From a virus (lineage: Duplodnaviria; Heunggongvirae; Uroviricota; Caudoviricetes), in the IMG/VR virus record IMGVR_UViG_2700989170_000002: a DNA stretch of 4,414 nt; one strand, 5' to 3'. A model generated the notes under the pieces. The model did not search any database. It had not been told where the DNA came from and worked only from the letters and a program-made list of their open reading frames with translations. A program made the position numbers and the translations under genes. Positions 1-4,414 of the stretch are shown here, piece by piece (within the stretch, counting starts at the first letter, position 1; every line of letters begins with the position of its first letter).

Positions 1-1446
1 TTTTTTGATGTCGCGCATCATTTTTGCGAAGCGGCGCATCATGTATGCATAGCGAACGGCTGAGAGAACGTCATCGTTAAGCTTGACGATCTTCCCGTTT
101 TCATCACGGTGATAGAGGCGGAACTCCTCAAAGAATGGCTCACAGGTGTTGAATACTTTGAAGCGTCCATCGAGCATCATGTCGCGCAATTCAGTGATGC
201 CAGGCTCAACAGCATTACCGCCATCAGGCCATGTCGCATGCTCCTGCAACATCATAAAACCAGCGTCCGCGTACTGCCCTTTAAGCTGCTCACCGCCGCC
301 CTTCTCGTGCTGGTTTCCGTCATGAGGCCATGCGGTTGGCACTTTATGCGCCCAAGATTTAACGGCTCCCCACGCCTGAACGGCTGTTTTTTCTTTCGCC
401 TTCCACACGCGTGAAACGTAGATTGTGTCTGCGTCCTTATCCCACCAAAGCTGAACCTGCGCCTGCGGGTGATCCCATCCGAAATCCATACCGCCAATTA
501 CGTAAAAGTGATCAGGGCACTCGAACGGCTGACACTTAATCGTCTCTTCCGGTATCTGGAAGATTCGCCCGCTACCCATCGTAGGAATACCGCGAGCACG
601 CGCCTCTCTCTCATGCTCAGGATAGGATGCGATGATTTGCTCTTTCTGCTCGTCGGTGTAGTGCTCAGCGTCATAGATGGTCATGTTGACCACTTTCTGC
701 GACTTGCTGGGATTCTTCAGGAACTTGGTAACAACGTCAGACATCCCCATCAGCGGGGTAAACGTCAGAATTGAGAATTGCCCGTATTTGTTGGTACGGG
801 TAAGCCCTTCGCCATAAATGCTGTATGGTGGTTCTTCGTCAAACCACACACCGTGGATTGTGTCACCCTGCCAGCGAGCACGGCCTTGCGAGTATGGTTT
901 GAAGTAGCAGATTGAAATGCCATCTTCAACGCCATCAGCCGTGTGATGCTTAACCAGAAGATGATCAACAAGGTTCGGAAAGAAAGGAGACTTCTTCCAG
1001 CTAATGATGTCTTCTTTAGGTATGGAACCGTAGCCTGGCTCATCATTCTCTTCGATACGACCACACAGGATGCGTTGAGTCGTTTTGGTTACAGTTTCGT
1101 TTGTCTCGCCGCCAATCCAGAAGACAACAGGTTCATAGAAACGCTTACCTTTCCACTCACCGCCATATTTACCATCAGCAGGATAGCCTTTTGTGCCCGG
1201 ATAACGCCCGGTAAGGTGAAACGCGACTTCAGCAGCACCAGTAAATGACTTACCAAGCTGGTTACCAGCCATAAAACATCGCTCTGGATAGTCATGCCCG
1301 GCGTCGATGAACTCACGCTGTTTGCTGTATGGCGTAAATTCATATAGCAGGTGTGTGTTCCGGTAGTTCTCTTCTTCTTCGAGTAGCTCGAGCAATTCGA
1401 TTTGCTCTTCATCGCTCAGGTTATCAAGAATCGCGTCCAGTTCCAC
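1..1446 (-). CDS. Phage terminase large subunit (TerL); N-terminal 482 codons in window, C-terminal end lies beyond position 1
   Basis: Hand translation of the minus strand from GTG at 1446-1444 gives an unbroken frame to position 1: [102 protein letters not shown]...[16 protein letters not shown]...[17 protein letters not shown]...[20 protein letters not shown]. It has a Walker A-like motif AGNQLGKS (about codons 60-67), a Walker B-like VWFDEEPP, and an Asp-containing IGGMDFGWD segment that fits a C-terminal RNaseH-like nuclease domain. An AGGAG Shine-Dalgarno lies about 10 nt upstream of the GTG. It is missing from the ORF track because it has a GTG start and no stop inside the window; the track ORFs at 109-414, 469-774, 943-1248 (+) and 252-497, 765-1064, 1089-1412 (-) are alternative-frame or antisense artefacts of this gene. 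The exact start codon is less certain than the gene call. Confidence 0.88.
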
Positions 1447-1918
1447 GGTTGAATAGCTCCTTGATACGAGAGCGCCGCTTATCGCGATCTCCCTTATCAG
1501 GTGTCACGTCTTCAACTTGCGACTGCTCTTTGAGGCCCAAATCACGGGCGATGATGTTAGCGTTGAGAAGGTCAGCGGCTGCGCCAGAGAACTTCTGGTC
1601 GTAGATGATGTCTTCCGCTCGTGATGTGACGTCAGAAAAACCTTCCATTGACCGGAAGGTTCCCCATGTTTGCCTGGTGATATCAAGGAAGGTACACAAT
1701 CCTGAAATAGTCATGGCTCGCATCTTAGGGACATTAGCCTTAATTATTTCTCCCTGATATGAAAATACCTTACCCTCCCATAGCGGGTTATCATCAGCCC
1801 ACTCGAAGTATTCACAACAAGCAGCCCACAGCGCCTCAGGCGATTCGAATTTAGGGTTTCGCCCATGACTACTGCGGGCCTCCCAAAATCGGTTGCCCTT
1901 TGGTGCTGCCATATTCAT
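1424..1918 (-). CDS. Phage terminase small subunit (TerS), putative
   Basis: A 164-aa ORF lies immediately upstream of TerL, and its stop (1426-1424) overlaps the TerL start by about 23 nt, the usual terS-terL coupling. The N-terminus is basic ([31 protein letters not shown]...), as expected for a DNA-recognition region, and the C-terminal tail is charged. Start could be the ATG at 1918 or 1912. The assignment rests on position, size and composition, not on a verified homology search. Confidence 0.7.
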
Positions 1919-1935
1919 CTCACTTAATCGTTATT

Positions 1936-2115
1936 TCAGGTTAAGGACTCTTTCGCGCCTTCAATCAGTGACTGCTTCAGCAATTCGAGTGTACCAATCG
2001 CCTCGCATAAACTGATTTCACCATCATAATCATGAATAACGCTTTCAAGCCGCTCGTATAGCTCTTGAGTAATTGGGAATTTCTTCTCCTTACCCAAATT
2101 GATTACGCGGCTCAC
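1936..2115 (-). CDS. Small hypothetical protein (59 aa), GTG start, translationally coupled to the upstream 80-aa ORF
   Basis: Not in the ORF track. GTG at 2115-2113 follows a GGAG Shine-Dalgarno at 2125-2122 with a 6-nt spacer, and sits 1 nt past the TGA of the upstream ORF. Translation: VSRVINLGKEKKFPITQELYERLESVIHDYDGEISLCEAIGTLELLKQSLIEGAKESLT, stop TGA at 1938-1936. The frame is closed upstream by a TAG at 2142-2140. Composition is protein-like and probably helical. It ends about 20 nt before the TerS start. Confidence 0.4.
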   Translation of the reverse strand: MSRVINLGKEKKFPITQELYERLESVIHDYDGEISLCEAIGTLELLKQSLIEGAKESLT

Positions 2116-2116
2116 A

Positions 2117-2359
2117 TCATGCTCCGGTAGTAAACAGGTCTAACGCTTCCTTCGATTTACGCACCGCTTCGATAGTTCGGGTCGTGATATCTGAATTAGC
2201 GCCACCTGACTGGAAGTGAATTTTGAATAGCTCAAGCTTCAGCTCGTCAGTGCCAATGAATTGAAATGCTTCTTCTGCGGCTGCGTTCTGGTTCATGACC
2301 AGTTTGTAAATCTCTAACTGGAATTTCTGTTCTTCAGTCATGGGAATAATCTCTGCCAT
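2117..2359 (-). CDS. Small hypothetical phage protein (80 aa)
   Basis: ATG at 2359 is preceded by GGAG with a 6-nt spacer (minus-strand sequence ACGGAGCCAACAATG). Protein: MAEIIPMTEEQKFQLEIYKLVMNQNAAAEEAFQFIGTDELKLELFKIHFQSGGANSDITTRTIEAVRKSKEALDLFTTGA. No motif recognised. GC content is similar to the terminase genes. Confidence 0.55.
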   Translation of the reverse strand: MAEIIPMTEEQKFQLEIYKLVMNQNAAAEEAFQFIGTDELKLELFKIHFQSGGANSDITTRTIEAVRKSKEALDLFTTGA

Positions 2360-2428
2360 TGTTGGCTCCGTTTATCCGTTAAAAGGGATATCAGTTAAGT
2401 TATCCCGTGTAGGGTATAAGCCATTGTC

Positions 2429-2451
2429 GAGACCACTCATTGAATGGTCTC
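2429..2451. repeat. Perfect 7-bp inverted repeat (GAGACCA / TGGTCTC) with a 9-nt spacer in the non-coding spacer
   Basis: Plus strand 2429-2435 GAGACCA and 2445-2451 TGGTCTC are exact reverse complements. No U-tract follows on either strand, so this is not a canonical terminator; it could be a protein-binding site or an RNA hairpin. Confidence 0.35.
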
Positions 2452-2607
2452 TGCAATAACCGATGTCTTTCCATCAGTCCGCCACCACAAAGAATCTTTT
2501 TTTGCCATAAGGCAGGAGGTTCATCTTTCAGTGGCTGCCAGTGTTATTTCCCCACTTACTGGCTTGGGTTGTTTCGCTGTACTGCCGTTAATTAGTGAGT
2601 CCGGGGA

Positions 2608-3093
2608 TTATTTCAGTTCGTTACCAGGCATTTCTTTTAGCTCTTTCAAATGACAACGATTGAGGCTAAACCACTCCCCGTGCGACCTATAGTTGTAATA
2701 TTTTTGGTGCAATTTGGTTTCAAGCTCTCTATCGGCCGGAATCTTTGCAATTAGATTTAGCTTCCCACCACTCATGCGAGATATCTCTGAAATTCGTTTA
2801 TTAACCCTGCGACTAAACCCTATTTTTGTTAGCCCACTATCTTCAGCATGCAGAACGTACACATATGATTTTTGCGAAGCACTGGGTGCGACTTTGTTGT
2901 AATTAATCATGTCAAACATAAAGCCTTGCTTTAGCAAAGTTTCAAAAAAGATAGAATTAACACACCCATTCCTTCTCAGCTCTGCACTTAGCTTGTCAAT
3001 TTCCTCTATGATGTCGCCAGACCCCTTTCCACTTATAAGAAAATCTTGGTACATGCGACCAATTCTTGAGGTAATTTCAACAAAGTTATTCAT
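2608..3093 (-). CDS. T5orf172/MUG113-family (GIY-YIG-like) domain protein, 161 aa; accessory gene of unknown function
   Basis: ATG at 3093 with an AAAGG Shine-Dalgarno-like sequence about 8 nt upstream. The C-terminal half (about codons 77-145, nt ~2659-2865) carries the motif order YVYVL...KIGFS...RRVNKR...GEWF, which matches the GIY-like / (Y/K)IG / conserved Arg / GEWF pattern of the T5orf172 branch of the GIY-YIG superfamily. The N-terminal ~75 aa have no recognised motif. The gene lies in a stretch of about 37% GC, against about 50% GC in the terminase genes. Confidence 0.7.
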   Translation of the reverse strand: MNNFVEITSRIGRMYQDFLISGKGSGDIIEEIDKLSAELRRNGCVNSIFFETLLKQGFMFDMINYNKVAPSASQKSYVYVLHAEDSGLTKIGFSRRVNKRISEISRMSGGKLNLIAKIPADRELETKLHQKYYNYRSHGEWFSLNRCHLKELKEMPGNELK

Positions 3094-3239
3094 AGCGTTT
3101 ACCTTTTAGAAAGATGAGCCTGTTCGCACAGAAAAGCCGCCCCCGAGATGGTCGCCACCATATACGGCAATTCTCAGGCTCAGCTTTCTGAAAGACTCGG
3201 GATTGTTACGCGCTGCGATGCGCGGTTTACTGCAGATGT

Positions 3240-3263
3240 AAAAAAGCCCCGCAAATGCGAGGC
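3240..3263 (-). terminator. Rho-independent (intrinsic) terminator on the minus strand
   Basis: Minus strand reads GCCTCGC-ATTT-GCGGGGC-TTTTTT: a 7-bp GC-rich stem (6 Watson-Crick pairs plus one G-U), a 4-nt loop and a run of six U. On the plus strand the hairpin is followed by TAAATCC, so it would work on the minus strand only. Confidence 0.6.
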
Positions 3264-3344
3264 TAAATCCTGGTATTTGTAATGACTGGCTCTTATCTCA
3301 ACGCAGCCCCTTACCGCGCGCCAGATGCTCAATATCAAGCATCA

Positions 3345-3633
3345 NNNNNNNNNNNNNNNNNNNNNNNNNNNNNNNNNNNNNNNNNNNNNNNNNNNNNNNN
3401 NNNNNNNNNNNNNNNNNNNNNNNNNNNNNNNNNNNNNNNNNNNNNNNNNNNNNNNNNNNNNNNNNNNNNNNNNNNNNNNNNNNNNNNNNNNNNNNNNNNN
3501 NNNNNNNNNNNNNNNNNNNNNNNNNNNNNNNNNNNNNNNNNNNNNNNNNNNNNNNNNNNNNNNNNNNNNNNNNNNNNNNNNNNNNNNNNNNNNNNNNNNN
3601 NNNNNNNNNNNNNNNNNNNNNNNNNNNNNNNNN
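3345..3633. other. Run of 289 N (assembly gap or masked sequence)
   Basis: The sequence shows N at every position from 3345 to 3633. The run removes the 3' portions of Rz and Rz1 and any sequence between them and position 3344. All ORF-track entries that span it (3282-3785, 3298-3762, 3325-3723, 3335-3934) are artefacts of translating N as X. Confidence 0.99.
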
Positions 3634-3735
3634 TGCTGGCTCCGGTCGTTGACTTTGCACAGGTGGCGGCGACTTGCAGGCGCTTACGCCCAGCAGAAAC
3701 ATCAGCACGGAGACTTTCGATAGTCGCGTTAGCAT
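3634..3735 (-). CDS. Rz1: o-spanin Rz1 (outer-membrane lipoprotein spanin), 5' part only; 3' end lost in the N-gap
   Basis: ATG at 3735-3733 is preceded by AAGGAG (3748-3743) with a 7-nt spacer. It lies in the +1 frame inside Rz. Visible product: [34 protein letters not shown], a signal peptide with lipobox (VSAC) followed by a Pro-rich segment, as in lambda Rz1. The upstream ATG at 3762 has no Shine-Dalgarno and is less likely. Confidence 0.8.
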
Positions 3736-3934
3736 CAGCAAGCTCCTTTGTATATCTGGCATCGAGTTCTGCTACATCACGTTGACGCTTCTGCATGTCA
3801 GCAATTGTGGATGCGGCCTTATCGCGCTGCTCTTTGTAGGCGATGGCGTTATCACGGTAGTGATTAACAGCCCATGACAGGCAAACGATGATGCAGATAA
3901 CCAGAGCGGAGATAATCGCGGTTACTTTGCTCAT
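3634..3934 (-). CDS. Rz: i-spanin Rz (inner-membrane spanin), N-terminal 100 codons visible; 3' end lost in the N-gap
   Basis: ATG at 3934-3932 overlaps the R stop as ATGA. Product [100 protein letters not shown]... is near-identical at the N-terminus to lambda Rz (N-terminal transmembrane domain, then a coiled-coil periplasmic region). By analogy with lambda Rz (153 aa) the true stop should fall near 3470-3480 inside the gap; the track's 199-aa length is an artefact. Confidence 0.9.
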
Positions 3935-4407
3935 ACCTCAATCTCTCTGACCGTTCCGCCTGCCTCTTTGAATTTTGCAATCAGGCTGTCAGCCTTATGC
4001 TCGAACTGACCATAACCAGCGCCAGGCAGTGAAGCCCAGATATTGCTGCAACGGTCGATAGCCTGACGAATATCACCGCGATCAATCATCGGTAAAGCGC
4101 CACGCTCTTTAATCTGTTGCAGTGCCACAGCGTCCTGGCTTTTCGGAGAGAAGTCTTTCAGGCCAAGCTGCTTACGGTAGGCATCCCACCAACGGGAAAG
4201 AAGCTGGTAGCGTCCGGCGGCTGTTGATTTGAGTTTCGGATTTAGCGTGACAAGTTTGCGAGGGTGATCAGAGTAATCAGTGAATAGCTCTCCGCCAACA
4301 ATGACGTCATAACCATGATTTCTGGTTTTTTGACGTCCGTTATCAGTTCCCTCTGACCACGCCAGCATATCGAGGAACGCCTTACGTTGATTATTGATTT
4401 CCACCAT
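3931..4407 (-). CDS. R: Endolysin, lambda R-type lytic transglycosylase
   Basis: The 158-aa product [62 protein letters not shown]... is near-identical to phage lambda R, including the catalytic Glu in the LAWSEGTD motif. A TAG at 4413-4411 just upstream is probably the stop of a holin gene lying outside the window. Confidence 0.95.
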
Positions 4408-4414
4408 CTTCTAC

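Follow-up and report, generated by a model that had tools for sequence, protein, structure and literature searches.

The stretch of DNA analysed here, 4,414 nucleotides in length and referred to below as the window, covers the lysis-to-packaging part of the late operon in a lambdoid phage or prophage of the P22-like (Lederbergvirus-type) group, with its genes on the minus strand. Along this strand the order is the endolysin gene R, the spanin gene Rz with the embedded Rz1, a run of Ns followed by a short coding tail and a terminator, a GIY-YIG/T5orf172 gene, a DUF2560 gene, an ORF of 59 amino acids (aa), and the small and large terminase genes. The features discussed below are listed in Table 1. 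At 97-98% identity, the nearest deposited records are those of E. coli prophages and of two P22-like Salmonella phages, epsilon34 and g341c. Exact copies of the GIY-YIG, endolysin and DUF2560 proteins are widespread, being found in 5,521 to 48,713 blocks by exact-protein look-up, and the first of these genes is annotated in the relatives as encoding a GIY-YIG nuclease family protein. About 250 nt between the GIY-YIG and DUF2560 genes (window 2360-2607) are without a convincing minus-strand ORF; in some relatives (e.g. L002 2450-2830) this interval contains a gene of the Gp49 family (PF13876).

Table 1. Genes and other features on both sides of the N-run, in window coordinates
Feature	Position	Strand	Basis
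Endolysin R, 158 aa, upstream gene of the lysis cassette	3931..4407	-	ORF; endolysin / glycoside hydrolase family 24 in epsilon34 and E. coli relatives
Rz (i-spanin), visible 5' part, codons 1-100 plus 1 nt	3634..3934	-	Pfam PF03245; aligns to epsilon34 gene 66
Rz1 (o-spanin), visible 5' part, codons 1-34	3634..3735	-	+1 frame of Rz; epsilon34 gene 66A
N-run, 289 nt	3345..3633	.	Sequence; 230 nt at the equivalent stretch in every relative
ORF50, visible 3' end: 2 nt of codon 36, codons 37-50, TGA	3298..3344	-	epsilon34 gp67 has an identical C-terminus
Rho-independent terminator closing the lysis cassette	3239..3264	-	AGCCUCGC-AUUU-GCGGGGCU followed by U6; same site annotated in epsilon34
Structured RNA leader, 149 nt, from the terminator to the accessory-gene start codon	3091..3239	-	RNAalifold and covariation
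GIY-YIG / T5orf172 family gene, 161 aa, in the variable accessory-gene slot	2608..3093	-	Pfam PF10544/PF13455 on the identical product

The visible 100 aa of Rz matched the Pfam family Phage_lysis (PF03245) with 75.9 bits (cut-off 25.4) and include the transmembrane segment and the periplasmic domain of an i-spanin. The visible part of Rz1, in the +1 frame of Rz, consists of a signal peptide, a lipobox with Cys20 and then a proline-rich stretch; these 34 aa by themselves gave no match in Pfam. After completion of both genes as described below, Rz (145 aa) scored 126.7 bits with PF03245, and Rz1 (61 aa) scored 67.6 bits with the Rz1 family (PF06085; cut-off 27.9).

On the other side of the N-run, the minus-strand tail at 3342-3298, read in the frame that ends with the TGA at 3300-3298, encodes ...MLDIEHLARGKGLR before the stop. 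Taken alone, these 14 visible codons would carry no meaning. In relatives, an annotated 50-aa ORF has exactly this C-terminus. This ORF of 50 codons, designated ORF50 in this study, corresponds to Sf6 gp65, epsilon34 gp67 and phrog_11822, and its function is unknown. The phrog_11822 profile matched epsilon34 gp67 over residues 1-50 with E=5.7e-38, while the window itself displays the last 14 residues, the other 36 being deduced from relatives. The orphan tail noticed in the initial annotation corresponds to the last 14 codons of the ORF50 reading frame.

The stem of a hairpin begins 33 nt past the ORF50 stop codon. It occupies positions 3264-3245 and is composed of an 8-bp stem with 6 G-C pairs and a 4-nt loop, followed by TTTTTT, the sequence arrangement of an intrinsic terminator. 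Between 3050 and 3344, one terminator-like site was found against 0.2 expected from shuffled sequences, and the centroid fold coincides with this hairpin. The sequence features of an intrinsic terminator shortly after the TGA, as was initially proposed, are therefore confirmed at 3264-3239. This would be the conserved intrinsic terminator at the close of the lysis module, which is annotated by homology in epsilon34 and phi80.

The length of the DNA behind the Ns was estimated from the relatives. The two flanks are 230 nt apart in all of the 138 fetched loci that carry both (both flanking anchors were required, with at most 3 mismatches each), and the fills of these loci represent 76 distinct sequences. 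By pattern search, flanks at a distance of 217-247 nt were detected in at least 120 viral contigs, the spacing being 230 nt in all the matches listed. When the distance was set to 276-306 nt, no match was obtained in the collections of viral, genome and metagenome contigs. A 401-nt query that includes the fill gave full-length matches of 401-402 nt in complete E. coli genomes. Ns were absent from all the fetched loci.

The closest relative was reached through a 42-mer unique to the window (2015-2056), which is present in 2 metagenome and 6 viral contigs. One of the contigs reached by this route, IMGVR_UViG_2869936548_000010, differs from the window by 1 mismatch in 4,125 unmasked bases and carries a 230-nt fill in place of the Ns. 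Its two pieces (L159 and L109) cover window 1-2984 with 1 mismatch, and 2985-3344 and 3634-4414 at 100%. The sole difference, T against C at position 2261, is located inside the DUF2560 gene. The identical 230-nt fill is present in four other contigs, of which the right flank is 100% identical. A window-specific 38-mer from Rz was found in 19 viral contigs and in none of the genome_contigs collection.

When this fill was inserted into the window, Rz, Rz1 and ORF50 were all intact. The fill includes Rz nt 302-438, Rz1 nt 103-186 and ORF50 nt 1-106, or in codons the last 45 and the stop of Rz, the last 27 and the stop of Rz1, and the first 35 of ORF50. Each of the 230 bases lies inside at least one ORF, and the three ORFs occupy all three frames of one strand. 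The reconstructed Rz ends with ..QEYIRTQCLR and the stop, and the reconstructed ORF50 reads MPSMIAIILLIILHIWLCRQGDDHFWSESRLNISLLMLDIEHLARGKGLR up to its stop. From a contig with a single mismatch in 4,125 nt, we infer that intact C-terminal parts of Rz and Rz1 are present in this genome. The prediction that the gap conceals the 3' ends of the spanin genes agreed with these results (the last 137 nt of Rz and the last 84 nt of Rz1), and so did that of an extra small gene behind the gap, of which the fill holds the first 106 nt. The end of Rz had been predicted near 3470-3480 by analogy with lambda, the Rz protein of which is 153 aa in length. This position has to be corrected, since a 145-aa Rz starting from 3934 ends with a stop codon at 3499-3497. 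No non-coding DNA was found in the fill, the whole of which is covered by ORFs.

Based on this comparison, the N-run is with high probability (about 0.86) a mis-sized but ordinary gap over some 230 nt of densely coding DNA, with ORF50 as the last ORF of the lysis cassette. The figure of 289 nt then most probably comes from scaffolding or masking, as an estimated length and not as a real distance, which would account for the origin of the N-run and for the 59-nt excess. Most E. coli genomes carry the spanin region in several copies (median 2, maximum 10 places per genome), and such a multi-copy region is a repeat at which short-read assemblies break, which favours the scaffold gap. That the N-run might be a scaffold gap of another true length had been named from the start as an outcome that would overturn the initial interpretation, and this is effectively what the 230 nt of the nearest contig imply. 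The converse explanation takes the N-run as true to length and places about 59 extra nt, by insertion, duplication or as another allele, in the overlap of the spanin genes and ORF50. The window itself states 289 Ns, and Rz alleles of 155 and 157 aa are known, but the uniform spacing in 138 of 138 loci, the lack of any match at 276-306 nt in three large collections, and the 230 nt in a contig that differs at 1 of 4,125 flanking bases all make such an extension very improbable. Moreover, with the fill entirely covered by ORFs, an insertion of 59 nt, a length not divisible by three, would break either Rz/Rz1 or ORF50. The longer Rz alleles were also considered as the cause by themselves and rejected, because they add just 30-36 nt and because the visible Rz of the window is of the 145-aa type right to the edge of the gap. 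Another explanation builds on the initial annotation and regards the tail and the terminator as closing a short transcription unit independent of Rz, with promoter and body inside the gap after an Rz of lambda length. A terminator 33 nt after a stop codon is indeed how transcription units usually end, but the unmasked relatives leave no intergenic space, ORF50 starting 13 nt before the Rz stop, and Rz is 145 and not 153 aa in length. On the gene strand of an unmasked relative no promoter-like (sigma-70-like) site was detected, the one match obtained being on the other strand and no more than chance predicts. A separate unit is accordingly the least credible of the explanations considered here.

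The mis-sized gap has one more consequence. In window coordinates, the tail and Rz1 share one frame, as was initially described, and a single ORF can be drawn through the Ns (3298-3762). In real sequences ORF50 is in the third frame, and this part of the description does not hold. The apparent common frame arises because 289 - 230 = 59 leaves a remainder of 2 on division by three. The caution attached to that description, that 289 nt is not divisible by three and that frame continuity across the gap could not be assumed, was correct; given the wrong gap length, any frame-based reasoning across the gap is invalid.

With ORF50 as the last ORF of the lysis cassette, we can also predict its mode of expression. 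ORF50 would be transcribed within the Q-antiterminated late transcript, and its translation, if any, would be coupled to the termination of Rz translation. Q-modified RNA polymerase reads through terminators of this kind, as established for lambdoid phages. By analogy, read-through of the terminator downstream of ORF50 into the accessory and terminase genes would be expected. The start of ORF50 overlaps the Rz stop in every relative bearing this ORF. The annotated ATG is located 13 nt inside Rz, AGGA is positioned 4 nt upstream of Met1, and the ATG of Met4 forms ATGA together with the TGA of Rz. Gene callers take either Met1 or Met4 as the start, giving rise to the 47-aa forms. Residues 1-18 of the predicted product are hydrophobic, while its C-terminal half is charged.

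On whether ORF50 is a functional protein, the data are equivocal. Its conservation argues for a gene to some extent. ORF50 is open in 123 of 129 loci, like Rz1 (126 of 129), codon position 2 varies least, the hydrophobic N-terminus of 18 residues is invariant, ORF50 accompanies two Rz alleles (145 and 155 aa), and the ATGA overlap together with the AGGA 4 nt before Met1 is typical of coupled genes. The selection data point in the other direction, in favour of a non-functional ORF50, for which the roughly 136 nt from the Rz stop to the terminator would be dispensable 3' untranslated or filler DNA and the 'coding tail' would be non-coding. The pN/pS ratio was 0.46 in the ORF50 frame and 0.60 in the +1 frame, compared with 0.15 for Rz at the same loci. 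The variable sites are distributed over the three codon positions as 11/5/14, without a significant bias for the third. For the three most divergent homologues, non-synonymous and synonymous changes were 11:1, 7:0 and 7:1, compared with 5:15 for Rz in locus L163, although homologues picked by protein divergence are biased to non-synonymous change. Some loci carry premature stops or terminal frameshifts, and many homologous cassettes, including that of phi80, run from Rz (ending with ..QCLK and the stop) straight to the terminator. ORF50 is encoded in just 44 phage records against 366 that match a wider query for the lysis region; by tblastn, these 44 of 50,697 phage records are all from Escherichia, Shigella or Salmonella phages. 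Depositors of HK620, CUS-3, mEp213 and JEP4 left the ORF unannotated, its product matched no family in Pfam and NCBIfam, all of the 65 clusters homologous to it are named 'hypothetical' or are mislabelled fragments, and a literature search for this small ORF returned no paper. Taken together, a non-functional ORF50 is a serious possibility, which we rate at somewhat short of an even chance. At the other end, ORF50 (47-50 aa) may be a fifth component of some lambdoid lysis cassettes, a single-pass membrane peptide translationally coupled to Rz that would modulate the action of spanin or holin, or the timing of lysis, and would be gained and lost as a 136-nt module; such a specific role appears rather unlikely. 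Small ORFs following Rz in Providencia PSTCR7lys and Pantoea PA-1 were inspected as candidate homologues and were rejected, as they are without resemblance to ORF50.

The genes of the gap are already known, being annotated in epsilon34 (66/66A/67 and the terminator), Sf6 (63/64/65) and hundreds of E. coli prophages. In epsilon34 (NC_011976 / EU570103), these are genes 66 (Rz, 145 aa), 66A (Rz1, 61 aa) and 67 (hypothetical, 50 aa), followed by the annotated Rho-independent terminator. The gene order and the position and sequence of the terminator are as in the window, the flanks are 97.6% identical, the C-terminus of gp67 equals the visible tail, and the 13-nt overlap of Rz and the ORF is that of the reconstruction. 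In contrast to the window, epsilon34 has 230 nt in place of the Ns and a few SNPs, and the ORF50 deduced for the window differs from gp67 at 2 residues (G22D, K28E). The epsilon34 genome paper describes a four-gene lysis module and leaves gene 67 undiscussed (PMC2629481). The same arrangement is found in the E. coli EC6 prophage, with Rz of 145 aa, Rz1 of 61 aa, a 50-aa ORF starting 13 nt inside Rz and a terminator annotated, as in epsilon34, at the site equivalent to window 3240-3263. In Sf6, the embedded Rz/Rz1 genes are followed by the 50-aa 'gene 65 protein' overlapping the end of Rz, as in the reconstructed window; Sf6 differs in the accessory genes downstream, and its ORF50 shows 94% identity. 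The equivalent of ORF50 is encoded in HK620 and CUS-3 as well, even though it does not appear in their annotation.

The lambda cassette shares with the window the two-component embedded spanins with the Pfam domains Phage_lysis and Rz1, but differs in the length of Rz (153 aa as against 145 aa). No record named lambda was included among the 44 tblastn matches to ORF50, the lambda-type records matching the wider lysis region. For these two reasons, lambda mispredicts both the end of Rz and what follows it. The phi80-type cassettes ('form B') resemble the window in the Rz family, a near-identical stem of the terminator, annotated in phi80 at the corresponding position, and the downstream leader. 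They differ in that the terminator follows about 35 nt after the end of Rz, the ORF50 segment of about 136 nt being absent. This segment is thus dispensable for a working lysis cassette.

The 3' end of Rz also forms a mosaic junction. The junction lies in the last 30 nt or so of Rz (query 188-216 of L109:3330-3730), a part hidden in the gap of the window. E. coli genomes often match the Rz side only (query 1-216) or the ORF50 side only (188-401) of the 401-nt query, and the 145- and 155-aa Rz alleles have these last 30 nt and ORF50 in common.

The main value of the present analysis is in quality control, for the gap holds nothing unusual and its stated length is 59 nt off. Biologically, the point of interest is whether the small reading frame behind Rz encodes a genuine protein. 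A more promising lead is the structured leader between the terminator and the accessory gene, which could show how lambdoid phages gate the variable accessory genes that follow the lysis cassette.

The accessory slot (window 2608-3093; loci L001-L022 and L162-L174) is swappable, with at least 12 different N-termini following the same leader at the same offset. The types observed include GIY-YIG/T5orf172, Rha, KilA-N, HNH and others, which marks the slot between the lysis and packaging genes as a mosaic accessory-gene site. The leader hardly varies in length, with at least 12 different genes following it, among them genes of the Rha, KilA-N, HNH and GIY-YIG types. For 12 diverse versions, RNAalifold predicted a fold of 26 pairs in nested long-range helices. 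In the outer helix of this model, UCUUU (3195-3191) would pair with the Shine-Dalgarno sequence AAAGG (3106-3102) and thereby sequester it. In the 12-version alignment, 98.7% of the cells were paired, and 10 of the 26 pairs showed double-sided changes, compared with 0-2 in slid controls and 0 of 500 shuffles. A covariance model detected full-length leaders in phi80, Stx2a phages, Salmonella S137, Pantoea PA-1, Klebsiella RCIP0114 and Providencia PSTCR7lys; the leader loci beyond the window are L178 698-843 (phi80), L179, L180, L181, L175, L176 and L177. In the alignment of independent phages, which was fitted to the model, 96% of the cells were paired and 16 of the 26 pairs showed double-sided changes (slid controls, 0-4). 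Altogether, 145 phage records, belonging to several enterobacterial genera, contain the leader, which is almost never annotated. A search of an unmasked relative against Rfam left the leader unmatched, with just sub-threshold noise over the terminator. On the basis of the predicted fold, the leader looks like a translation-gating or processing element for the variable accessory-gene slot.

In phi80 (L178, NC_021190), the structured leader also touches the annotation of the downstream gene. The annotated start of rha, at locus position 805, falls inside the leader (805-843). All relatives use the ATG downstream of the AAAAGGTAA Shine-Dalgarno sequence, and in phi80 this ATG is at 841. The start deposited for phi80 rha is probably too far upstream.
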